Shown here: positions 3,044 to 27,032 of the stretch, one piece after another
Layout of the letters: the number at the start of each line of letters is the position of its first letter
Position numbering within the stretch: the first letter of the stretch is position 1
Assembly (NCBI GenBank): GCA_023645945.1
Contig: JALAIB010000094.1
Coordinates: 1 to 32,821, forward strand
Direction: 5' to 3'
Source of the DNA: Diploschistes diacapsis
Lineage: Eukaryota
Length of the DNA: 32,821 nucleotides
Notes under the pieces: generated by a model
Databases searched by the model: none
Told to the model about the DNA's origin: nothing
Seen by the model: the letters and a program-made list of their open reading frames with translations, nothing else
Made by a program: the position numbers and the translations under genes

Positions 3044-6000
3044 TCATCGTTTTCTCTCATCACCACACTCTGGACAGCCCTTGGGGAACACTGAAGGGGA
3101 GAATGGATGGCCATGGCCGCAGTAGCTTGGACCTCCGCACTCACTGTTGCCAAGTTTCTCCCAAAAATCCCTGGATTCCACCTTGTGCATATCGTCAAGG
3201 GCGAGAGAGCTCACACCGGACATGATGAAGCTGTTGGCTTCTCGCACATTGCTTAGAAGACATCCCGCTGAGTTTGGATACGCTGCACACAGAGTTGATG
3301 CTCTCTTCAAGTCATCTCCTATAGCAGCAATTTCTAGGCCGGTATTCCTAGCAACAACGACCAAAGACGTCTTCAGAATGATAAGTTCCACTTCCAGACG
3401 CTTGAGATTCTTTTGCTGGCATGGAAGCATGATCTGGTCGAGTGCTGCAATATCCCCCGAAAGGTGCCTGTATCCACTAGAGAGGACCTCTATGAGCAGA
3501 CCAATGTATTCATCCTTATTTGCAGTCTTTCTGAGCTGTACCGTAACCATCGAAAGGAAACGTGCGATCAGAAACCGACAGCGATAGTAAACACGATCAA
3601 ACCGAAGCTTGAAGCTCAGCACTGGTACCGGGAATAGTTCACCGTTATTCAACATTCGCGCGAATTTGATGATGCTTTCTTCAAGTGGTCGCACAAAGTT
3701 GTCCCGCGTCCTCATAGCTTCCCTCTGGACCTCAATCATTTCCGTCATACGCTTGTTCATGATCTCTTGATTGTGCCTAACGGCAAGCGGTCCGGGCTTG
3801 ATCTTGGTACAGAGTTCGGTTAAGTTGAGGAACAGGCGGTCCTCTGCTGCCATCGTGCTTTTTGCAACTTGGCGCAACTGTCGGCCCATCTTCGCGCAGA
3901 GACGTCCAATAATATCCTGACCGTCTAGGAGCTGGCGAGCGAGGGCATAACGGGGGCAGCCTGAGATGGAAGAGCCACAGGTGGGACACTGAAGCTGCAT
4001 TGCCTTGGGTAAAGATTGTACCTTAATTTCCCAGATCTTACCGTCTGAGTCAAAAGAATACAGATCTTCCAGGCCTAAAGACTTGTCAAGCTCTTTGACG
4101 GTAAAAGTATGTTGGCATGGAAGTGTATAGGTCGGTTCTTTGCTCCTTTGTCCTCGGCATTCTAAGCAGGTTTCCGGACATGGTTCTCCACAAATGCTGG
4201 GGCAAATGTGAAGTCCACAAGAAAGCATATGGGAACATGGTTGAGAGCATGGGATGAACGTGCCGGGTAAGGAGCAAAGGATGGCCTTCTCCTGATGCGG
4301 GCAAGAGATCCGTTGGCCTTCCTTCACACAAGGATCGCATCTAATAGCACATGGTAATTTGCAATTCCCATGACTGCATGCCTTCAGACAGGGCTGCAAG
4401 CAGGTCGGACAAACCTCACTACCATGGCAGGGAGTTATGCATTTGTGTCCACAAGGCAAGTCCCTCCCGCATATTTGTTCGCATGTAAGGCAACATCCGT
4501 CATGGTTGCATTCACTGCATCTGTGTACGCACTTGTGGCCACATTCTAAGAGACGACCACAGTCTTCATCGCAGTTTACTTCCTTTCCTTCGTCGGCACA
4601 CTTTATTGTCTTAATATGTCCACAGTCCAGAAGAACTTGGCCCTTCTCGCGGGTGCACCAGAACCTAACCATGTCCGTGGAGCAGAGGGGCTTTAACAAG
4701 TGGCCACAAGGCATGATGATATTTTCTCCAAACGCAGTACAAGGTGTGCACTTTTCGCCACAAAGCTTCTGGCATTGATGGCCACAAGGTAAGGTCTTGC
4801 CGCATAGCTCAGTACAAGGCATGCGCCCATCTTTATGCATCTCTTCTAGATGACATAGTTCAGAACACAAATGACCGCACGGAAGCTCTTGTAGACATGG
4901 CTCTTGACACGCTGGAATATATTGAAACTTGTCTGGATGGGCAACACCGATTATTGCAGTATCATCGTCATCATAATGCTTTGAACATGGCTTAAGTGGT
5001 AACTCTCTGCCACAGGCACTTTTGTGTTTGAACTTGCTGACGATGGGAGTCCACTGTGGTATAGTTTCGAGAAGCGTAGAATTGCCGACGACGTAAAAAC
5101 CATTGCGTGCACGACTGATCGCAACGTTGACTCGGTTCTGGTTTTTCAAGAAGCCAGCCTTGCCTTGTACGTTGCTCCGTACCGGACTGAAAAAGACAAC
5201 GTCGTTCTCTTCACCTTGGTAGTTGTCAACTGTGGTGACGCGGATCATTGCGCCTACTTCGAAAGAAGTTGCGGATTTACTATCAAGTTCGTCCATCTCG
5301 AGCATTCCTGCATCAACAAGCGCTTCTTTATCTCCTTTGGTGAGGACAACGTTGCAGAAACTCTTGAGACACCTCACAAAGAGAGCTACCTGGCCGTTGT
5401 AGGGAGTAAGGATGGTAATGGTATTGTACCTAAAGCCTTGACGTTCGATTAAGTATTTCACTGTATTAGAGATAAAGTCGGCCTCCCATCGGTTTGAACA
5501 AGACTTGGCCATGGCTGATAAAGGGTCCGGAATATCCTCTGGAACATCATGGTGCACCCAATATAGACGAGAAAAAAGGCCAGGTACATCTGGACGGTTA
5601 TGTGTGCTCGGATGATCGATGAGGTACGGATAATCGCCCTCGCGAAGTAGATCCGCCAAATCCGGATGAGCCCTTCTTTGTGTATTAAGCCTTGAGAAAG
5701 GAATAGAATCAATTAGTCTTTCAAACAGGGACTCATCCAGTCTATATCTCACGTCATTCTCAGTACACAAAGCCTGTGAAGTGATATGAGGGCGTAGTTG
5801 AAAGGGATCACCAATCTTGATCAGATGCTGGGCGGATGGAACCAGCGCCGCTATCGTAGAAGCTTCTGTAAGCTCACTGGCTTCCTCCATAAGATAAGTG
5901 TGTGGTTGAAGCATGTTTAGAAATTCCCAATTTCGGGCGCAGCCACTTGCGGTCAGAGCGATAATGTCAATCTTCTGCTCTAGCAGGGACCGAACATCGA

Positions 6001-8122
6001 GCTCCTGCATGAGACGTCGACTTCGTGCTCGTGCAGACTGATGACGACGATGAATCTCTGCAAAGGCTTCACAAAGACTCCATTCGTTGATATCCCTGAG
6101 CCATTTTTTGAGTAGCTCTTGTCTCTCAACCATGTCACGATTCCAGATCATCTGGCATGAGCTGGGAGAATCTGCAATCTTCTCCTTAAACATGTTTAAG
6201 ACCTTTAGTACCGACGTATGGGCATTAACGTCGATTTTCCCAGAGGATATACCGAGAGCTTCCGAGGACGTAGTAACCAAGGCTTCGATGCTGTTTAAAT
6301 CACCACCAGTGATCCAGTATTTGAATGCATAGCCGGCAGAGCTCCTCGTCAATAAGCGATATTCAGCTTCCCTTACGCCAACTTTATCGAGGTACTCGAA
6401 TTGATTGGCGATCTCCGTGTGGTTCTTGGCTAGATATCCTTGCAGAGTACGGATTCCTACCTCACTTGAGAATTCTTCGGCCCACTCAATGCCTAACATG
6501 ACGAGGTTTTCGGCCTGACTTCTTGCCTCGAAACGTCCTCGTCTTTCGTCGATGTTTGCTTTGACTCGCCGTGAGACATTGATCAGTAGGTACTTTTCCA
6601 TCCAATCGCATGTACTCCGGTTGCCCACGCGGACGATCTTGGTGATGTTGCGCTTGATCAAGCTGGCAATGAAATCGTCAAGGGCATGGTTCGTCATACA
6701 AACGACGATGATAGGCTTGTAATTGTCTTGCGGCTGTGACTTTAGTATGACTTCGGACTCAGCTACGCCTAGAAAGGTTTTTCCGGTACCCGGAGGGCCT
6801 TGTGTGAACGCAACACGTCGGTTCAAGTTCTCGAACAACGCAGTAGCCTGGCCATCATCTAGTGTTGTAAGCTGTTTGATTGACTGCAGTCCCTCTTGTG
6901 AGCCAGGGCTTAGGAGTAAATCTTCGCGAGGCGAATCTTTTGATGGATCTCGAAGGCAGTTAAGGTCATATCGAAATCCAGCGTCCAAAGCGTACGCCGG
7001 AGGCTGAACAGACGGGCCCACCGCGTCGGTTTTAGGGGCAACGGTGCTTGAGAACGGGAAATCACCGGTGACGGAATATTGCTGCAGCCTGCGAAGGGGA
7101 TCCACAAAACCAGCTGCAAGGACGTTTGGTAGATCAATTAGGAAATATCGAGCTTTGATCAGACCTTTTGCATAGTATGCCGCTTGACGTACTTTCGATA
7201 TGTCATCTCTATTGGCGAGGCATAACTGGACCGCTGCGCGAGTTGTACTTCCTGTGGATTGCATTGCCCCCTGATTTTGTTAGCGAATTCAGCTGAACTA
7301 GAATTAGGGTGACAGTACCGTGCTTTCGCGAATGAAAGCTTCGAAAAGAATGACGTTAACCTCGTTCGTCTCCTCATGAACTGCAAGAAGAGCACACATC
7401 TTTCCCTTTTCGAACAAATCCGATGAGAACATAGAGACACCGCGGAGTTTGCGCGGACAGTCGAAACTCATCCGGAAAACAGCTCCCACGAATTCATGAA
7501 AGATAAATGATTCGAATTTGGCTTCTTGAATAAAAGTGTAGCGGGTCCCCCGAGGCGTTTCTTGGCGGTGATCGTAGATTGGCATGGGTGGCCAGATGGC
7601 TTTCTGAAATCCATCATAGCAAGCATCGATGATGACTTCAATATTGTCCTGCCTGAGCTGACGGAAGTGGCAATCCAATAGACGGGAAGGGGCGTCAGGA
7701 CGAATAGTGACGTTCTTTGCCGGTATAAATGGGGCGCGAAGGCAAATAATCTAGGGAACTAGGTTATAACTAGGCATAGAGAAAGCCAAGAAGAACCCTA
7801 CCTCATCGACGGTCGGTAGAATTTCAATGCCAGTGATCTCCACCATGTCATTATCGTGACGAAGTCCTTTGGCGGATAACGTTCCCGGCCCATCTTCATC
7901 AAATGGATGCTCTGTTGAGACTGGCAAGCGAGCAGTGCAAGTGAGAGAATTGATTGGATCGCGCGGGACCATATCATACTCTTCATCGACTAGAGTGATG
8001 ATGTGGTGCCTCAAGCAGTCTTTGTTCCTGCACGATCCAAGAACGTCATCTTTGCAAAGATGTTCAAGAGGCAATGAGCGTAGCGAAGCCTTCGGCGCCA
8101 CATATGGGCGGTAAGCTGCCAT
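3044..8122 (-). CDS. NFX1-type zinc finger SF1 (Upf1-like) RNA helicase, ZNFX1/SAD-3/Hrr1 family; 3 exons (8122-7802, 7750-7319, 7270-3044), ~1659 aa
   Basis: Introns 7801-7751 (GTAGGG..TAG) and 7318-7271 (GTACTG..GCTAAC..CAG) join three ORFs in frame. Motifs: RHDND..I..I.ILPT.DEI, Walker A GPPGTGKT, Walker B MEEASE, IGDPFQLRP, SLFERL, LNTQRR, ILTPYNGQ, TVDNYQGEEND and NRVNVAISRAR. These are followed by repeated LPCGH.C...CH NF-X1 fingers, a RING-like LPCQH...CPTC and a terminal CGHGH...CPEC. Confidence 0.93.
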
Positions 8123-8905
8123 GGTGAAGATGAAGGCGAGCCAATAGAAGTGAAACCTCACCAGTTAATGCTATAATAAGGTTGACGGTATGTAATATGT
8201 TCAACTGATAGCAAGATGCAGACGCGCAGACGCACAGCCGTTTGAACGTCCGTAGATGATCCTAAGAATTGTGATTGAAGAGGAAAATTTCAAATTTGTT
8301 GTCAAGTCTCGTGGTGTAAGGTGTGCATAAGGGTGATACATATTTCACAGTGGAAAGAACGTCTATTGTTGACTCAAAACATACAGAGTGTGCGGGACAC
8401 CACATGTGCTTGAAATTCAGTGAAAATACCAGACAGTAGGGGGAAAGGCCGCATTATGGAAGTGTCTAGTAAACGAAAACATACTGCTGGTGTTCAAATA
8501 AGTCTGGTTCAACTTGGGCATGTAATCCATGGCCGCAAAGTAGCGCTGCACTTTACCATACCAAATTGTGTGAATCTAATTTACCGTCAGTCATCTATAC
8601 TGAATTCACATCACACCTCTCATGCCGAATCATTCTTGTTATCACGAAGGCACTTCGTATTAGTAATGACCAAATATCAAGGTCACAATAGCACAAATCA
8701 GCACTCGCGATCAGTTGTAGTACCACAGTACTCAGATTCGCGTAGCAATACGTAAACAAGTAGTTAGGGGTATCTCCCGGCCATTCGCCTCAAGTAACCG
8801 CATCATTACACCCATAAATAGCAAGCAAAGAAATACTACTCTACCAGGTAGGTACCCCAATCCGCACGATGAACCTTCAAACCCACGATGTGCCAGAGTC
8901 GAACC

Positions 8906-16376: not shown

Positions 16377-16436
16377 GTAGAGCCGACAAGGTACGAGACC
16401 TTGGGAGTATGCGAGAGCCACGGATACACCAGTCAG

Positions 16437-16636
16437 TCACAAGGACCGAGCAGTGTATAATGTGATTTCTTTAACAGAGTATTCCAGCTGCAACGCAGGC
16501 CGACTATCCCAGCAGCGGGAAAAAGCAATATCGTCAAGTCGATTGAAATCTCGTGGAGCCGGGACCGGACTGGAGGGCACGCGCTGAGGCATGCCCTCCA
16601 GCGGTGCAGTTAGAGCTCGACGATAGCCTGCGGCAT
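16437..16636 (-). promoter_or_regulatory. Two AUG-initiated uORFs in the probable 5' leader: MPQAIVEL* (16636-16610) and a 51-codon MPQRVPSS...TARSL* (16592-16437)
   Basis: Both lie downstream of a CT-rich tract (minus strand, ~16762-16733) typical of fungal transcription-start regions and upstream of the main ATG at 16272. The transcription start is inferred, not known. Confidence 0.4.
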
Positions 16637-17269
16637 GATTCCTCGACGATATTGAAAATAATTGTGTACTCTTTTTTATTCCTTTTTTGATATTGGATAC
16701 AGTAATTTGGGTGATGTTGCTTGTGGATGCTGGGGAAGGAAAGGAAAGGGAAGGAGGGGAGGCATTTTGAGGAGAATCGTGGGACACTTTTTTTTCCGAG
16801 CAGGGGTGTCATGCTAGCGTCTTGGCCAGTTACGGCTAGTGCCCACAATGCCCAGGCGGTGAAGGAAATCCATAAACGAGCCAATGGTACTGCATAAACT
16901 CAACCTAGCGGCGGGAGCAGTTATATGTCACTACACTTCACTCAATCCTCGCTTTGGCCAAAGGAAAACTTATTGGGCTGATTCTTGCCTTGGCCAGATC
17001 ACGAGACTGATGATCTGGTACTTGGAGCATGCTAAGTTACGTGTCCTGTCCATATGTACTGCAACCTGCACACGCATATGCGCCGAACATACCGCTAACG
17101 GAACAGAACTAAGGCATGCCGGTAGGCAACCTGCCCATTTATGGTAGATCCAAAGATATCAAAGCCCTTCAACCACCACAGGAATGCACAAGAGCACCCC
17201 AGACAGGCTCCCAGCATGGACAGTCTGTCTCCGCCTCTTTCTGGGATGTAATGGTCTACTTGGCCGTTG

Positions 17270-18010
17270 CGAAAGTGCTGAATCATGCATTCCATTATCT
17301 TGCTTCTCCGTACCCGGATTGGCAAACAAAATCTAAAGTCAACCCTTTGCCCGCAGGAGGGTGCAAAAACTCCATAACTCGACTTTAGCGATGAGATAGG
17401 TTTGGTCCGCCGTGGTCCGAAAGGTTATTCATCCACTGGCTTTGGCGTAGACGACATCCCTTTGAACTCTGGACGTATCCCAATCGAGGACAATATCCTA
17501 CCCCCCTCAAGGATTTCCAGCCACGCAGACTCCATCCAAGCACGTTATTTAAGACCTTCACATCTCGTGTCTTCGAAGGCAAACCCGAGAATTTGGACAA
17601 CGAACCCTTGGAAGGAGGTCGGTCCTGACCAAGCACGGCGAGGCACCTTAGTTCAAATTATTTGGGCCAAGGGATCACAGTTTGAAGATGTCGTGAAATT
17701 TCCGAGCCACCTAGCCGGTCTGCCAGTTTGCCTAGAGTCAGAAGTGCGACCTGCACTGCTATTAGTAGACTATCAAGAAGAGAACCTTAGTCTAGATAGT
17801 CAGCCAAAAATGGAAATTGGTAAGTCACTTAAGGTTTCGTAGCATAGCATATCGACAAGCTCAAGAAGAGGTTCGGAAGCGAGTAGAAGACGAAAACAAC
17901 ATCAAGGGCTCATAGTACGATGTCCGGTCCAAGCTCTACTTTCGAGTAATGACCCGTTTCTAGTTCATGATGAATCCAAAATGATTTCCCGAGAAATATG
18001 GGAGGTTCTG
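17270..18010 (+). pseudogene. Possible decayed APH/phosphotransferase (kinase-like) gene relic
   Basis: Across shifting frames, in the expected order: AGGCKNSI/LDFSDEIGLVRR (G-loop and following strands), QARYLR, SRVFE..NP..VG, IIWAKGSQFEDV (cf. IIME.A.G..L.DV) and LSSN..FLVHDESKMISREIWE (cf. DL...NI.VD....I..IIDWE). The similarity is weak and judged by eye. Confidence 0.3.
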
Positions 18011-18036
18011 TGGGTTCTGTGGGTTCTGTGGGTTCT
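18004..18036 (+). repeat. 9-bp tandem repeat (GGTTCTGTG)x3.7
   Basis: Read directly from the sequence. Confidence 0.9.
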
Positions 18037-19125
18037 TTTAATCTCCTGCACCTTTGATGGGTATTTTGGAGGCTCCTTTGACAACAAGAAACGGCAGGCA
18101 GACATTTCGGAAAAAGGTGGGCTAAATGGAGCACGTGCCCACACGACGATCCGACGCCAAGGAACTGAGCGTGTTTCTCTTTAATTCTTGTCCGACAACT
18201 CACTGTTAAGAATGTAATTCATTGCCGGAAACCATCCTTGTTAAGCTTAAACGTAGCGTGTATGTAACCTGGATTCCTTGCAGTGTAAATCGCAATAAGT
18301 TAATAACGCTTGCCCAATTCAGAACAGTAGCCATTTTCGTTGCGCTTGCTGCCAGCTTGTATGCTAGGTGAAATACTGATCATGTTGGTAGCTCCGTGGT
18401 CTCGCTTCTACAATCCAGTTTAGTTCAATACTGGCACAACGCAGTATTGTTGGTGTTTTGGCTAAACTGGCGCTTTGTATCACGCCTCCAACAGTTGACG
18501 ATAGGAACAGCGCACGGTGAACAACTACAAGATAAGTGCAGAAATAGCTCTGGGTCTTTAAATCCGCCTAAAATGTCCCATATCAACAACTGGTAACCCA
18601 GTTCGGCAGTTGAAGTCGTGCAGCAGTTGATACTTCTTTGCAACTCCGCAGGTCTATCCCGAAATCGGTCCCGATACAAGGATTTTGTTGAGAAGGGAGC
18701 CGAATCTTGAGCATTTCGCCGCCGCTTGCGGAAGGGAACGCTCAACGCCCGATTGAAGCTTCGTAGCACTTTATGGAATTTTCGTGTATGCCGAAAACCC
18801 ACCGTCACGAATGACTGGGCCATCACGACAACTGTGTCTTTCAAACCACCTCCGTAAATGGCAGCAATCACACTTTTTGCTGAGACTTCATTTCTGATGC
18901 TTGTCCCTTAACCTCTAGCTGTTACCATATCCAGAGCTACGTGAATGATAGCATCCTAGACGTCTGAACGCTACACCAGGCCCACGGATACCGCCACCAA
19001 TCCCAAGCGTCTCCCCTTCCTCCTGTAGCATCCTGTCCCTCGAAACAACGGGCCCCATGCCCGTCGCCATCTTCCCTCGCTACTGCCTCTTGCTCATCAG
19101 GGCCACCTTTTTCTTAATATCAAAA

Positions 19126-19974
19126 GCACTGTAGCTCGACCGTGCCAAGCGGCTTTGCTTGTCGCATTGTATGTAACCAAGCTGATGCCGTCGACTTCGT
19201 TAACGGCCCTGCGGGACACCTCGCTCAGGAACTCCATACTAAAAGGGTAGGCCTCGGGCGATGAGAAAATCAGTAGCCATCACACCGCAGAGGATAATCA
19301 TGTATCCTTTGTAGCGCTTGTCGCTAACAGCGCCGACTGCTTTGTCTGTGTCAAATGCAGCCCGGCCGATTTCATGGTAGAGGCTAGTTTGCCTGATCTT
19401 GCCTGATCATACTGGCATAGATATGATCAGCCTGCCTCGCGACCTCGACTCGTTCAGGGTTGGCTTCTCCAATGATCTGGATCCATACCCAGGCCTGGGC
19501 AAGGACGTCGGGTAACAAGACCTTCATGTACCCCAAGCTCTCGGCCAAGCTTCCTAACCTTGTCCCTGAGCGCAGCTCAAAACATACCAGCTCTCGAATC
19601 TCGATGGCGGGGACTCGCGCGAAGCATGCTCTTGGTAGGTTGAGTATTGACCTGAAACTTTGTGTCAGCAAGACTGCTTAGTCAGGATTGAGATGTTCTG
19701 GGACAGCGTCCGCGATTCAAACGAGGTTCGAAGCTTAGAACTGCGGCACTTCCCGCCAGAAAGGATGATGCTCTGCGGCTTGATGGTGAGGTCCTCTCTT
19801 AGGTGTCTCTATTGAGAGGAAATACTGAGAGTCAAATTCAAGAGCGAATATTGTCCAAAGCCTAGATTTAGCAATGTATTGCTCGAGGATTGACGCGAAT
19901 TCGCTTCCTAATAAGGAACCGGCAACTTGAATCCGAAGATGAGGGTTAGCGAGGCGCTTGATGTTAGCGGCCAT
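19126..19974 (-). pseudogene. GUA1: GMP synthase (glutamine-hydrolysing) pseudogene with a large internal deletion and multiple frameshifts
   Basis: Colinear fragments match recalled fungal Gua1 motifs: IFALEFDSQY (ILTLDFGSQY), RHLRE (RRLRE), IKPQSIILSGG|QYSTYQEHA (KPKGIILSGGPYSVY..DAP), LRDKVRKLGRELGVHEGLVTRRPCPGLGM (FKDEVR.LGRELGI..ELV.RHPFPGPGI), IQIIGEANPERVEVARQADHIYASMIR, LYHEIGRA..KAVGAVSDKRYKGYMIIL..V.ATDF, EAYPFSMEFLSEVSRRAVNEVDGISLVTYNATSK and KPLGTVELQ (KPPGTIELE). Confidence 0.9.
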
Positions 19975-20207
19975 CTTGTCTTGCGATACTCGATCAGGTA
20001 CCGCAGTTCAGCTAAAACGGTAATCTCAAGCAGTGCAATGACGGGTACCAGATACTCAAGTACTGGATGTTCTCTAGGTTATTACTAACTTGCAATTTCA
20101 TGGGAATTTTTTTGGGAAAGATTCTCGAGATGTGGTGAAAATATGATTTTCCGGTCGTGTCAGTACCCGAGTGCTTTCCGGGAGAATTCATTCAAGCACA
20201 TTACTTA

Positions 20208-20606
20208 ATCGTTTCACCACACAACGGAACACACCACCAAGCGGAACACTACATTATAATGTAATTGCGCTAGATCGAGCGCTTCCGTATTTAGTTTAGT
20301 TTCTAAGTTTTAAGCGAGCTTTTGAGCTAAGCCTGTTCCGTACGAAGCCCCACAACCACACATTAAATTATTTGCACGGAGCTGAATCTTGTTCTCAACT
20401 ACAACTACCCCAACTGTCACCCCTGCACGGCCGTTCTTTTCTTTAGATTGTAAAGCATGTAATGCGAAAGCGATTCGGCCTTCTTGAGTATCCATAATAA
20501 GAGAATGTTATCGTACGAAAGGTGAAAATGTTAAAAAATACACTTTACGAAGGTGCAGGGATTGTGTTCCGCTTGGTGGTGTGTTCCGTTGCGTGGTGAA
20601 ACACGT
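20208..20606 (-). mobile_element. Non-autonomous Fot1/pogo-family (Tc1/mariner superfamily) deletion derivative, MITE-like, ~399 bp
   Basis: Inverted repeats at 20211-20249 and 20564-20602 match at 38/39 nt, and each contains the internal direct repeat CGGAACAC twice. The right end is ACGT followed by TA (20607-20608); TA is also at 20206-20207 on the left, where the terminus is degenerate. The internal ORF start MDTQEGRIAFALHALQ resembles the Fot1-type transposase N-terminal HTH start (QEGRI.LA..A). Confidence 0.88.
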
Positions 20607-21923
20607 TATAGGCACTATATTGATTATACAATAGGACGCTCGTCGTTCGACTGCTTTTAGCCCAAAAAAAACATGAGGGACGTTAAGGTTCGTTGAGAGG
20701 GTAATACTTCTGATCCCAATCTCCCGATAAAGGTATGCAGCTCGACATCAAGGATATATAGTAGACGGCATGGGGCAGATACGGGCTTGAATGTAGAAAC
20801 CATTGCTGAACAGCCACTCGCGCATCTGCCCATCTATCTTGCGAAAAATGCAGCGAAAAAGTAGGTGCTGTTTGTAAAATGCTCTGCGATGCCGCGCGAG
20901 AGGTCAAAGGATGTACTCTAAGCTCGTAATCCGTAATAATTGGTGTTGCATTCACAACACCGTGAGAGCACGAGAATTTCTGGCCCCCATTGCTTGTTCA
21001 GTCATCCTTCATCGTTGTCGATGGCCTGTTCTGGTGCTGGTGCGTGAAGGCAAGGGACTTGAGCTAAGCACTGCCCCAACTACCCCCGGTTGGGGATATC
21101 AAAATGAAAACAAAATTTGGTTAGTGAGATACTTGTACATTATAGTTCGTGTTCGGTGCTTCAAGGTAAGCTGGAAGGAAAGGAATTAGTAGAATACTAA
21201 AGTATCTACAAAGTACGTGGTCAAAGTGGTGAAGGAGTTCTCCACTGCCGCATTGCAGCCAAAAGGAACCAACCAGGGGCGAAAAGGGCCAGCGATGAGG
21301 CCCAAGGCTCGCAAACACTTACTCCATACCCACCACTTATAATGGGTGATATGAAGTGAAACCCTGCACGAAATGCTGCTCCCAGGAAGATCCACAAACT
21401 TCTCTACTCTATATCCATGGGCCCAGTACGGGTATGCATGCCGTGTGCGTTGGGGACGAGATGCTGATGTAATTCGAATACGAACATGGATTAAAATCTT
21501 ACGCAACATCCTCATCAGCCAGTCGAAGTGCGACTGTGTGAATAGTAATAGTAATAGTAATTGATGCGGATCGCAATTGTCGATATTTTCACCAGTACTA
21601 GTACTAGCTCATGCGCTGACACAACGCTCGTACAGAGTACTGCATCTGTGGGCTGCTAATCACGCTGGACTTGAGTGTGAAAGACTGCTGTAGGTCATGC
21701 CGTGTCTAAGAACAAAGGGAGAAAGTAGGGGAGAGTACCTGCAGAAGAAGCGCCCGAAAAGCCGCTGAACTAGAATCTCACGCTTTCCTTTCCGAAGCTT
21801 AACTCCACCTTTAGCTCCGTGCCCCATGTTACTGTTGACCGACTCCCATAGTAAAAGTTTTCCCCATCTGCGCCGCCGCCACCTCTAGCAACTAGGACTG
21901 CTGTGGGGCAAACTGTCCAGTGC

Positions 21924-21940
21924 ATTATTATTATTATTAT
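21924..21940 (+). repeat. (ATT)n microsatellite upstream of the adhesin gene
   Basis: ATT x5 plus AT. A separate (AATAGT)x3 lies at 21541-21561. Confidence 0.8.
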
Positions 21941-22420
21941 AGACTATACTTTTGCCGCCTCTACTCTCCTTTTGTTGGCCCTGCAGCTGGCCCCTGTGTG
22001 AGTGAGAGAGAGCCAGTGGACTAAGCAAGACTGGCTTCGGCGCTTGACCCCATTCGGCCGTTTCCTGAGCGCGCGCCTTCTACCATTTCTCCAAAGGAAA
22101 GAAGCTCTAAAAATATGCTCGTTTTGGCAGTCCCGCCTGGCCCCCCTCATCGTGCGCGTACCTGTGCGTACCTGTGAGAGTCTATATTGTAGACCCTCAT
22201 CCCCTCCCATCATCACTCACTCTCTTTTCCTCTCCTCTCCATCCTACGTCCTATTCTTTACCGTAATTTCGCCTTTGCCTTTTCCTTTTGCTTTACAGCA
22301 CGCCCCTAGGCCTTACAGTCACTCGCTTGTACTGTTCTCATTCGCAGAACATAGTAAAATCACCATCATTTTTATATCACCCACACTCGCTGCTATACTT
22401 GACGGATATACTTGGTCATA

Positions 22421-24496
22421 ATGTACACCAAGTCTCTTCTACTCGCGGCAGTCCTGGGGCTGCAGCAGGCTGCAGCCAGCCAGTGGGACATCAATGCCTC
22501 GTTGTACAAGTGCCCTGGATCGACTCCAACCACGTGCTCTCCTTACCAGCTGGGCGGTTGGAGCTTTGGTGGTATCCCCACCGGCTCCATCAGCGGCTTC
22601 GATGGCTTTTCCTTCAGCTGCGGCGTTAGCGGCGTCTCCGGATCTGGGTGGACCTGCAACAGCCAATTTCAGGGCCTGAGCGGCAAGAAGCAGCGCTCTC
22701 TCACACCTCGCACCAGCGGTGGAAGCCAGTGCGTCGAGGCCGATCTGAAGAACAAGCCCACAATCAGCTGCGCGGACCGTGACTTCACCGCAGCCCAATT
22801 CTCCCTGGTAGCCGACTTCGACGTTGACTTCATCATGACCTGCGACCAGGGGAACGGACAGACCTGCCAGCAGAGTGGGCATTGCGCCGCGGCCGGTTCC
22901 AGCTTCCAGAACACGCAGTGTGCTGGCTGTAAGAGCATCTCGTTTCAGGGTGGTGTTGGGTTTTCTGGCAGCTGCGGTTTCGGCATTCAGAGCATCGGAT
23001 GGGAGTGCAGCAGCAGTTCCACCGTTCCCTCCCTCCCGTCCTCGACCCCCAGCATCCCCGTGCACTCAACCTCTCCTGCCACAAGCTCTGCTCAAGCTAC
23101 TGCTTCCGCCACCGCCCAAAGCTGGAGCAGCACTCCATCATCCCACTCGAGTCCGTCCCAGTCAGGCCCTTCCCAGTCAAGCTCCGCTCAGGCCTCCCCA
23201 TTGACCACATCTGCTCCTATCCCGACCGTCATTACCACGATGGGCACCTCGATCATCACCGACACTGTCGAGGTCACCATTACGTCCTGCGCCTCGAGCG
23301 TCCTTAGCTGCCCAGCACGCTCCACGATCGTAACAACCTCAACCACCCAGTATACCACTGTGTGCCCAGTGACCCTCACTCACACCCCGACCCCGGCCAC
23401 CAGCGCACAGGCAATTCCCAGCTCGACGTCTGTCGCCCTCGTTCCTAGCTCGTCCACCGTCGTCGTGATCCCTGGCTCATCCTCGGCCGCCGGCAAGCCC
23501 AGCTCCACCCTCGTCACAATTGTCAGCAGCCCAACAACCTCTGCTCAGGCTATTGGCTCCACCACCTCGCCAGCTCCTATTCCAGGCACCACCCAAGAGG
23601 TTGTCACAACCATCATCGTGACCGAGTCGACCACCGTCTGCCCCGTCACCGCCACCATCACGCCAACGACCGGCAGCGTCACTACCCCGATCGTGACCAC
23701 TTCCCTGTCCACTTCCACCATGACCATCACCAGCGTCTCCACCATCTGCACCAAGTGCGTGGCACCTGCGCCAACCTCCTCGGCTCAAGCCCAGGCCACC
23801 TCCCCCATCCCCAGCCCCGTCTCCTCGAGCTCCCCACAGGCCTCTTCTCCCGCCCAAGCCGGCTCCCCCTGCCCATCTGTCGTGCCCAGCTGTCTCAACA
23901 CCTGGATGTTCACCACAACCTGCAAGGACAACACGGACGTCGGCTGCTTCTGCCAGCTCGCCAACTACACTACCTCCGTCATCGGCTGCATCTCCGCCTA
24001 CGGCGCCACCCCAGCGGAGATCTCCTCCGCCATCTCCTACCTGCAGGGCATCTGCGCCCCCTACGTCTCGGCCAACCCAGGCGTCGTCACGGGCGTGCCC
24101 TCGACCATCTCCATCGCTCCCGTCCCCAGCACGGTCCCGGCCACGACCATCACCATTGTCAGCGGCACGGTGTCCACCTGCGCAACCGTGCCCGCCGTGC
24201 AGTTCACCACTTACACGTCTGCCGCCGCCGGTGCTACGGTGCCGGCCGCGTCCCCTGGCCTCGTCCCCGGCACGGCTAGCCCCGTCGCGCCCCAGCAGTC
24301 AGCTGCTCCGGGCGTCACCGCACCGTTCCCGTCCGGCGGCTCGCCGGCGTCTGCCAGCCCGAGCGGCACGGGAGCCATCACCAGTGCGAACCCGGCGAGC
24401 TCCAGCCCGATCCCGTTCCAGGGCGCTGCCGCCAAGGGCGCTGCGTCCGGCTTCGCTGGTGTGGCAGCCATCTTCGTTGCCATGGTTGCTCTGTGA
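22421..24496 (+). CDS. Mad1-like GPI-anchored cell-wall adhesin with a CFEM domain, ~691 aa, intronless
   Basis: Signal peptide MYTKSLLLAAVLGLQQAAA; Cys/Gly-rich N-terminal domain; Ser/Thr/Pro-rich stalk with TTVCPVT repeats; CFEM-type region CPSVVPSCLNTW...CKDNTDVGCFC...VIGCISAYG...SYLQGIC; GPI-signal-like end FQGAAAKGAASGFAGVAAIFVAMVAL. The architecture matches Metarhizium MAD1-type adhesins. Confidence 0.88.
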   Translation: MYTKSLLLAAVLGLQQAAASQWDINASLYKCPGSTPTTCSPYQLGGWSFGGIPTGSISGFDGFSFSCGVSGVSGSGWTCNSQFQGLSGKKQRSLTPRTSGGSQCVEADLKNKPTISCADRDFTAAQFSLVADFDVDFIMTCDQGNGQTCQQSGHCAAAGSSFQNTQCAGCKSISFQGGVGFSGSCGFGIQSIGWECSSSSTVPSLPSSTPSIPVHSTSPATSSAQATASATAQSWSSTPSSHSSPSQSGPSQSSSAQASPLTTSAPIPTVITTMGTSIITDTVEVTITSCASSVLSCPARSTIVTTSTTQYTTVCPVTLTHTPTPATSAQAIPSSTSVALVPSSSTVVVIPGSSSAAGKPSSTLVTIVSSPTTSAQAIGSTTSPAPIPGTTQEVVTTIIVTESTTVCPVTATITPTTGSVTTPIVTTSLSTSTMTITSVSTICTKCVAPAPTSSAQAQATSPIPSPVSSSSPQASSPAQAGSPCPSVVPSCLNTWMFTTTCKDNTDVGCFCQLANYTTSVIGCISAYGATPAEISSAISYLQGICAPYVSANPGVVTGVPSTISIAPVPSTVPATTITIVSGTVSTCATVPAVQFTTYTSAAAGATVPAASPGLVPGTASPVAPQQSAAPGVTAPFPSGGSPASASPSGTGAITSANPASSSPIPFQGAAAKGAASGFAGVAAIFVAMVAL

Positions 24497-25255
24497 ATGA
24501 TGGAGCAAGGGTAGGAGAGGAAAGAGTATGTACAGAGGCGACGAGGGACAGAAGGGAGGGGGAAGCTATAATTCACGTCTTTCTTTTAATGAACGCATTA
24601 AACAGAACAGCGCCTGGTGGCGCGGTGTTCGGGAGTTGCAGAGCAGGCAGCTACAAGCCCCGGGTAATTTTTGAGTCGCCCTTTTTTCCGAAACGGCTTT
24701 GGGTAGTATTGGTGGGCGGTGGTGATGGATGAAAGTGGCCAAGGAGAGAGAGAGAGAGATGTAATCAACAGAGAAGGGAGAAAACAAACGAGTGCAATTT
24801 ACAGCAGCCTGTAATAGATAATACCAAGGCTTTTCTAACCTGCGAATCAAACCAGGCTGCCCTTGGATGTAGTTTTCTTGCTTCACGCCGATTGATGTTC
24901 GCGTGCTTGCGAAGTGAACCGAAGCGACTTTGTCCCTTGGAGTCTGCTTCCAGCCCACCAATAAAAATTGAGTCATGAGTGCGTGTATATATATACATAT
25001 AATATATATATAGCAGGTAGGTACACGCGAGAGAATTATCCATCCGAAGTTATACCTACCCACCTACCCTACCCAGTCAAAGGTACGTCTCCCCACCACT
25101 TTGTATACATAAATACCCCAAGCTCGGGGAAAAAGCCGCTTTAGATGGAATAGCCCAAAAGAGAGCAATCTAGAAGTTTTTTTTCAGGGGAGAAAGTACC
25201 TTTGGGATTTTTTGGATTTTTTTCCTCTCGTGATTGATCGGGAGCACTTATTCGA

Positions 25256-25754: not shown

Positions 25755-26088
25755 GGAGCCCCCAACTAGCGCTGCCGCTGCACCATCGGCCTTGCAAAGA
25801 TCAAAGTTGACGGTGGCTCCATACTGGTTCGCGGCACTCGTGCTTGCCCTGGGCGCAGAGCGGGTTACCGTTCGCAGGGCACAAGTCGTCGACCTTCACG
25901 ACGATGGTGCTGGCACCGCGCAGAGCCTTGCCGGAACTGTCCGTCGAAGGGGTCAGCCGACAGCAGGTGCCGCATGCCGGACCCGCGCCCTGGCCAGGAC
26001 CGACGCGGAAGAGGGCCTGAGAGGCGGCGGCCTTGAAGCCGGGTTGGTGTGGAAGTGAGCCGTTTCGATCGCCAGAGCCGTAAGCGAG
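25755..26088 (-). pseudogene. GH45-like / DPBB (expansin-like) endoglucanase pseudogene
   Basis: AYGSGDRNGS...PGFKAAASQALFRVGPGQGAGPACGTCCRLT..DSSG...IVVKVDDLCPANGNPLCAQ, then after a one-base frameshift (~25848) ASTSAANQYGATVNFDLCKADGAAAAL. The expected N-terminal Cys segment (C....ACG) is missing, and no intact signal peptide or ATG was found. Confidence 0.8.
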
Positions 26089-27032
26089 CAAGGGAAGTGA
26101 TGGATGGCGTTGCAAGGAGGCTTCGATCCTACGATCGTTGCGAACGAGTCCAGATCACATGTCGGACCGGCCTTGATACTTAGCCGCATGAACCTTGTAG
26201 ATAGCAGGGAGACGGCTGTTTGGATCGAAGGATCAACAAAGCGCAAAGGGAAAAGGAATCCAATGTCTGGGCTCCAATTCAACGCTTCACAGTAGATTGG
26301 AAAGTACAGCGTACAAAGTACTTTGAATGCGAACATCTGCTAGCACAGAATTGAGTACCATGATCTGGGGTGCAAGGGTTGGACAGAGCCCGAAAAATCG
26401 AGAAAGCCTGCTGCACGCCACACGTGGCTTACCAACAGCACTACCATTGAGTCTAAGTTGTCAGCCCAGGAATTGACAACCTACCTTTCTTTAATATCGA
26501 AGAACTTGAAGGGACCATAAGCTGATCTTTTTGCGGGCCCGTCTTCTCCGCCAGAAAGCGACCTTGAACCATTGCTGCTTACGAAGCAGCCCAGTTTAGC
26601 CATGTGTACACGTTGTGCGGTAAATGGATCCAATATGATATTTCGAATCCCAGGGCATCCTTAGAGCCCAATCTCATCAAGCGTTGATCTTCGGATACAT
26701 ACTGTTTGTGCAATTATGAATTTCCGAATACTCATTTCATTGCATTAAAAGATTATGTAGTATCATCTAGGTATGTGGTCAGTCGTACCGAAGCATGTCA
26801 TACACCGTGCTGAATCTGCTCGCTCAAAACGATCTGAAAACCCGACGCCTTCGTAGCCGCTGCTGTTGTTGCCATTCATTCCCACTTGCATGGCCTGCCA
26901 TCGGAGCGAACAGATTTTCCTGCTGGATTTCGTGGTCGGAGACATCTGCTACCTTATGAGCCCTGCGAACAGCCCGCTGCTAGCTTTTCAGCTCGCTTGC
27001 TCACCAACTCGGAGGCCCTTCCTCTCTCCCGT

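Follow-up and report, generated by a model that had tools for sequence, protein, structure and literature searches.

A decayed GMP synthase gene of a Sordariomycete-type lineage on a contig of the lichen fungus Diploschistes diacapsis

The GUA1 relic and its surroundings

GMP synthase (Gua1) aminates XMP to GMP and has a glutaminase domain and an ATP-pyrophosphatase domain. In the window, that is, the whole 32,821-nt contig JALAIB010000094.1 of the Diploschistes diacapsis assembly GCA_023645945.1, a pseudogene of GUA1 (hereafter, the relic) lies on the minus strand at 19126–19974. Its presence had been proposed from the sequence alone (the original prediction) and was confirmed by tblastn, frameshift-aware alignment and colinear peptide blocks. 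When 121 fungal GMP synthases were compared with the window by tblastn, 117 matched 19000–20100 on the minus strand with E values of 1.5e-6 or lower (best 4.6e-14), and the four weak queries were proteins without the C-terminal domain. In a genome-wide search, a Stictis protein matched 19151–19570 at E=1e-18. The frameshift-aware alignment scored up to 426; none of 60 shuffles exceeded 48, and none of 102 other segments of the window exceeded 42. Six-frame translation and the alignment bore out the predicted colinear blocks, which number more than eight, use all three minus frames and run from the ATG at 19974 to a TVELQ ending at 19129. Thus, the relic belongs by descent to the GMP synthase family, with significant colinear similarity to the GATase and GMP_synt_C regions. 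The features are as follows.

19126..19974, minus strand: GUA1 pseudogene, Sordariomycete-type in lineage; runs from the ATG at 19974 to a final codon that ends at 19129, with TGC at the stop position
19855..19926 (boundaries approximate), minus strand: decayed intron 1, after residue 16; a 72-nt insertion in the alignment
19754..19854, minus strand: exon 2 remnant, residues 17–65 without 38–52, with a frameshift near 19806 (alignment)
19652..19753, minus strand: decayed 102-nt intron 2 at position 65.1; it retains the branch site and the AG acceptor, and its donor is degenerate
19603..19608, minus strand: junction of the large deletion, about residues 81–393 of 544 lost (alignment); bridged by a contig of run X3 from another study
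19571..19587, minus strand: 17-nt insertion opening with a donor-like GTATGT (alignment)
19129..19570, minus strand: C-terminal block (end of the ATP-pyrophosphatase domain and the dimerisation domain), without three introns present here in the resident gene
19389..19408, no strand: 10-bp tandem duplication, TTGCCTGATC x2
20211..20608, no strand: miniature inverted-repeat element, upstream of the relic ATG by 237 nt; the arms measure 39 nt and are 97% complementary

Compared with a fungal Gua1 (Aspergillus-type structure 7mo6; PF00117, PF02540 and PF00958), the relic has an almost entire C-terminal region and, in colinear order, remnants of the N-terminus, while the large deletion has removed about 310 codons (approximately 57% of the coding length), the frame is broken repeatedly and the stop codon is lost. 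The gap at residues 81–393 agrees with the predicted loss, which takes in the greater part of the glutaminase domain and almost the whole ATP-pyrophosphatase domain. However, the junction, which had been placed at about 19575–19600, lies at about 19603–19608 in the alignment. The alignment also revealed a second, in-frame loss of residues 38–52 that was absent from the prediction. In the C-terminal block, frameshifts lie near 19500–19483, 19404, 19253 and 19153. The tandem duplication of TTGCCTGATC is exactly where it had been reported, and TGC indeed stands in place of the stop codon after TVELQ. Since the catalytic cysteine/histidine region and the PP-loop fall in the deleted part, and several frameshifts follow, the relic does not encode a functional enzyme now.

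The intron after residue 16 is at a conserved position, which is shared with the resident gene described below and with the metagenome genes L013 and L014. Intron 2 of the relic was read by eye from the sequence, and the intron positions of the comparators were computed. The 17-nt insertion is probably a truncated third intron, for which no comparator has exactly the same position. The retention of two decayed introns at conserved positions marks the relic as a non-processed (duplicated) pseudogene, and the relic was therefore a DNA-level copy. Its RIP indices resemble those of a normal gene.

The inverted-repeat element upstream of the relic belongs to a genome-wide family with at least 98 matches among those listed, several of them near full length. 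It is absent at this site in one contig of run X2 from another study (depth 5.6), is polymorphic between samples and is a later insertion. A short internal frame presumably resembles the start of a pogo/Fot1-type transposase; the Pfam scan of the flank gave no match for this frame. Another dispersed repeat of about 70 bp lies at 18393–18465, with at least 40 other genome matches listed at 80–94% identity. Of the two neighbours named in the original prediction, the Ifh1-like gene stands as a weak Pfam CRF1 match (E=0.0023, under the cut-off), and no Mad1 family match was found among 23 ORFs, a set without small exons. Elsewhere in the window, at 3044–8164 on the minus strand, lies a long helicase frame (AAA_11/AAA_12 in Pfam) that has a cysteine-rich tail and that I take to be ZNFX1-like. 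Just upstream of the relic are a gene for a secreted Ser/Thr-rich CFEM protein (22403–24496, plus strand) and an expansin-like domain gene (25801–26154, minus strand).

The resident GUA1 and the same relic in other samples

GUA1 is described as conditionally essential in Candida (PMC10879430). Is the lichen fungus then a guanine auxotroph, as the original prediction had offered as one of its options? I searched its genome and found one GUA1 locus beyond the relic, on contig C4052. This resident gene encodes 540 residues without any stop when six GT-AG introns are spliced, and looks intact, as the other option, a functional copy elsewhere, had anticipated. Its product shares 480 of 540 residues with that of Thelotrema lepadinum, its nearest named relatives are Graphidaceae, and the cluster of its main exon includes a member labelled Diploschistes. 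The best solved-structure match is again 7mo6. An IMPDH locus is also present in the genome. A loss of de novo GMP synthesis, with guanine supplied by a partner, would fit the window, where the decayed copy stands alone, and the assignment of both contigs to one organism rests on protein kinship. Nevertheless, the intact gene with its Graphidaceae kin and the IMPDH locus refute the auxotrophy and make it extremely improbable. The attractive idea of a guanine-dependent lichen fungus is thus removed.

The tetranucleotide comparison of the window with C4052 gave no separation from another fungus (0.55 versus 0.51). Since the best named matches of the window's neighbour gene are Ostropomycetidae, namely Xylographa and Trapelia, with Gomphillus in a match cluster, both contigs appear to fit one Graphidaceae-like lichen fungus. 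The relic is physically linked to host genes, as seen from the kinship of this neighbour, the genome-wide repeat family and the other contigs. Because the neighbour is Ostropomycetidae-like and the contig carries the genome-wide repeat family, the contig belongs to the lichen fungus itself. As a separate observation, the resident GUA1 (C4052, about 18500–25000; L004 and L006) has as its neighbours a fragment of a glutathione S-transferase on one side and an NRPS-like gene with adenylation and carrier domains on the other.

It was also asked in the original prediction whether the broken gene is an assembly artefact. The assembly is fragmented (4361 contigs) and the best-matching reads are those of a lichen metagenome, which would favour an artefact or a contaminating contig. 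However, when the possible source run was assembled separately, no difference appeared over 17500–20252, and contigs of two runs from other studies (X2 and X3) carry the relic with about 3–4% divergence and with different private lesions. The low-depth X2 differs from the relic at 27 positions in about 1040 bases, and X3 at 17 in 387 bases. One X3 contig reads across the large deletion and lacks a further 243 bases, a loss of its own. The relic is therefore not an assembly artefact, and the kinship of the flanking gene speaks against contamination; I regard either as having almost no chance of being right. The 10-bp duplication is missing from one X3 contig (depth 99 of 195) and one X2 contig (depth 3), and appears to be a recent lesion. 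The death of the gene predates the split of these populations, and its erosion continues.

Position of the relic in the GUA1 tree

One intact and one dead copy per genome is the usual outcome of duplication, and the intron after residue 16 is common to the relic and the resident gene. It was assessed whether the relic is a recent duplicate of the resident GUA1, or the old copy left decaying after a relocation. Over the columns of the relic, identity is 62% to Stictis, 61% to Ophiocordyceps unilateralis, 46% to the resident gene and 44–49% to 11 other Lecanoromycetes. With one alignment setting for 15 proteins, the scores were 492 for Stictis, 479 for O. unilateralis, 297 for the resident gene and 270–316 for five other Lecanoromycetes. 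When those relatives of the resident gene with a C-terminal region were scored, the single Sordariomycete species came out far ahead (348 versus 229 for Thelotrema). This top Sordariomycete protein led to a subclade that has signature residues in common with the relic, and the top cluster from that search holds a named protein of Stictis urceolata, a fungus of the same order as Thelotrema. The intron at 65.1 has the position seen in the two Sordariomycete-type metagenome genes L013 and L014, while that of the resident gene is at 64.1, and the three C-terminal introns of the resident gene are absent from the relic. The approximately unbiased (AU) test rejected a grouping of the relic with the resident gene (p=0.034; p=5.5e-8 in the control reading described below). 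A comparison of the window with 30 kb of C4052 showed no DNA similarity at E<1e-3, and a DNA search of the genome for a second copy of the relic matched the relic alone. The relic is neither sister to the resident gene nor a carrier of the same intron set. The tree tests and intron positions thus reject the relocation, segmental or whole-genome duplication that had been suggested, and a duplicate of the resident gene is very unlikely.

The maximum-likelihood trees were unrooted and built from 54, 30, 25 and 25 chosen rows. Overall, tree rows were 25–95 of about 250 proteins from two top-120 lists, with named proteins favoured and with Eurotiales and Leotiomycetes barely sampled. Three analyses put the relic inside a subclade of 9–10 rows with support of 100/98–99. 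They include one under a site-mixture model and a control: since the first read-through had been guided by the Stictis protein, the relic was read again along the resident protein, and it kept its place. The relic's own 213 columns alone gave the same subclade at 94/84. The subclade consists of Sordariomycete genes, Stictis and one unnamed protein; its named members include O. unilateralis, Cylindrodendrum, Lomentospora, Thyridium and Cosmosporella, and the relic and Stictis are the only named non-Sordariomycetes. A grouping of the relic and Stictis with all Lecanoromycetes was rejected by the AU test (p=1e-150). This is the pattern of a xenolog, with supported nesting inside the clade of a distant taxon and rejection of the monophyly of the taxon. 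The sister link between the relic and Stictis is moderate (98/89, 94/74, 89/84 and 94/59), and joining the relic to Ophiocordyceps and Cylindrodendrum without Stictis was not rejected (p=0.13), the relic being a long branch with 39% of the columns filled. The nearest intact relatives of the relic are the S. urceolata protein (MCJ1441465.1; P0240), to which it is identical at 131 of 211 aligned residues and throughout the first four, and the Sordariomycete members of the subclade; they are intact while the relic is broken. The resident gene has a long stem in the trees; despite this, its placement as a normal Lecanoromycete orthologue was not rejected (AU p=0.235), and its grouping with Stictis was (AU p=0.018). 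The relic belongs to a separate lineage with a patchy distribution.

Throughout its Sordariomycete part, the GUA1 tree disagrees with taxonomy. The AU test rejected the monophyly of three Ophiocordyceps genes (1e-37), three Microascaceae genes (4e-9) and four Hypoxylaceae genes (7e-84), on a quick tree and with groups chosen after the tree had been seen. Recurrent transfer would explain such a conflict, and so would old paralogues followed by loss. As a core gene of metabolism, GUA1 is commonly assumed to be single-copy and to descend vertically; that Ostropales lichens have a second lineage of it, in a tree crossing orders and classes, is a warning against its use as a phylogenetic marker.

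Possible origin of the relic

The following scenario may be proposed. GMP is made via the resident, intact-looking gene on another contig, and the relic sits in a different GUA1 lineage, together with Sordariomycete genes and one intact gene of S. urceolata from the same order, Ostropales. A genomic, intron-bearing copy may have passed from a Sordariomycete-related donor to an Ostropales ancestor. Being redundant, the copy may then have lost constraint, suffered the large deletion and decayed neutrally, with the observed differences in new lesions between populations, while Stictis would have kept it. I lean towards this reading, a second GUA1 that was horizontally acquired, is intact in Stictis and is dead here. 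Neither donor-type neighbouring genes nor a compositional anomaly was found at the relic.

Alternatively, the common ancestor of the classes may have had several GUA1 copies; most lineages would have retained one, and Ostropales would long have had two, one of them now dead here. Stictis and Ophiocordyceps are separated by a path of about 0.28, much like the roughly 0.25 that separates Lecanoromycete from Dothideomycete genes in the other clade, and depth alone is therefore compatible with ancient paralogy. The conflict with taxonomy across Sordariomycetes also favours it, as does the precedent of IMPDH-B in the mycophenolic acid cluster, whose distribution is explained by repeated loss after vertical descent rather than by transfer (PMC11934065). 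However, under ancient paralogy no fewer than three or four nested duplications must have preceded the split of the classes, all 11 other named Lecanoromycetes compared must have lost the copy, and among named non-Sordariomycetes only the relic and Stictis fall in the subclade. It is the less likely explanation, albeit one with a real chance.

mpaF/IMPDH-B serves as the known model of how a guanine-pathway enzyme can exist in a second, distinct copy (PMC11934065; also PMC6517689, whose main text makes no mention of GMP). IMPDH-B/mpaF persists as pseudogenised remnants in some species, and the cluster was judged to be vertically inherited (PMC11934065). The relic resembles it as a cladistically distinct second copy beside the usual one, with a patchy distribution and pseudogenes. 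In contrast, mpaF lies in a known cluster and confers demonstrated resistance, while the relic is not flanked by cluster genes and its gene tree crosses classes. As to a former self-resistance paralogue, another option of the original prediction, the genome does have a second copy beside the housekeeping one, but the relic was not found among biosynthetic genes. A six-frame Pfam scan of 16401–19132 and 19975–22403 for cluster remnants gave one chance-level match (E=0.078) in 12 frames. The flanking ORFs at 17378–18181 had only two, self-like matches among 1.84 billion representatives, and the ORF at 18428–18907 had no usable match in the Atlas. A metagenome scan with the Stictis protein gave seven loci: one looks bacterial, five are too short to show their context, and L014 is the only long fungal locus. 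It belongs to another subclade, and its neighbours are of the housekeeping type (NuBaID, SDR, a fungal transcription factor, Ysc84, ArfGap and SelR), with no backbone enzyme among the 24 ORFs scanned. Eight clusters of unnamed proteins were checked for a second Stictis GUA1; no member was named Stictis, which is uninformative for copy number.

It is rather doubtful, though conceivable, that GUA1 was repeatedly transferred in filamentous ascomycetes, with the subclade acting, for resistance or as an amidotransferase, in a so far undescribed purine-antimetabolite cluster, which moved from Sordariomycetes to Ostropales lichens and whose loss the relic marks. If so, the intact Stictis locus would lead to such a cluster. 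That locus is a starting point for the question whether fungi have GMP-synthase-directed toxins together with a protective copy, as is the case for IMPDH. Among the papers listed in the literature searched, which covers few subscription journals, none dealt with the transfer of a GMP synthase in fungi, with a paralogue or with a resistance gene of this kind. As an extra copy that has decayed, the relic itself is an ordinary kind of object; what deserves following is its foreign lineage, together with the discordance of the GUA1 tree.

Two further observations concern GUA1 elsewhere. GMP synthases labelled Talaromyces stipitatus and Dactylellina cionopaga (P0163 and P0167) nest among Sordariomycete genes and are candidate cross-class transfers; thus, cross-class jumps of GUA1 would not be unique. 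Three Sordariomycete-type GMP synthase genes from metagenomes (L016, L017 and L018) look damaged by small indels or stops, which may be alignment errors in intron-rich genes, hinting that extra GUA1 copies decay elsewhere too.
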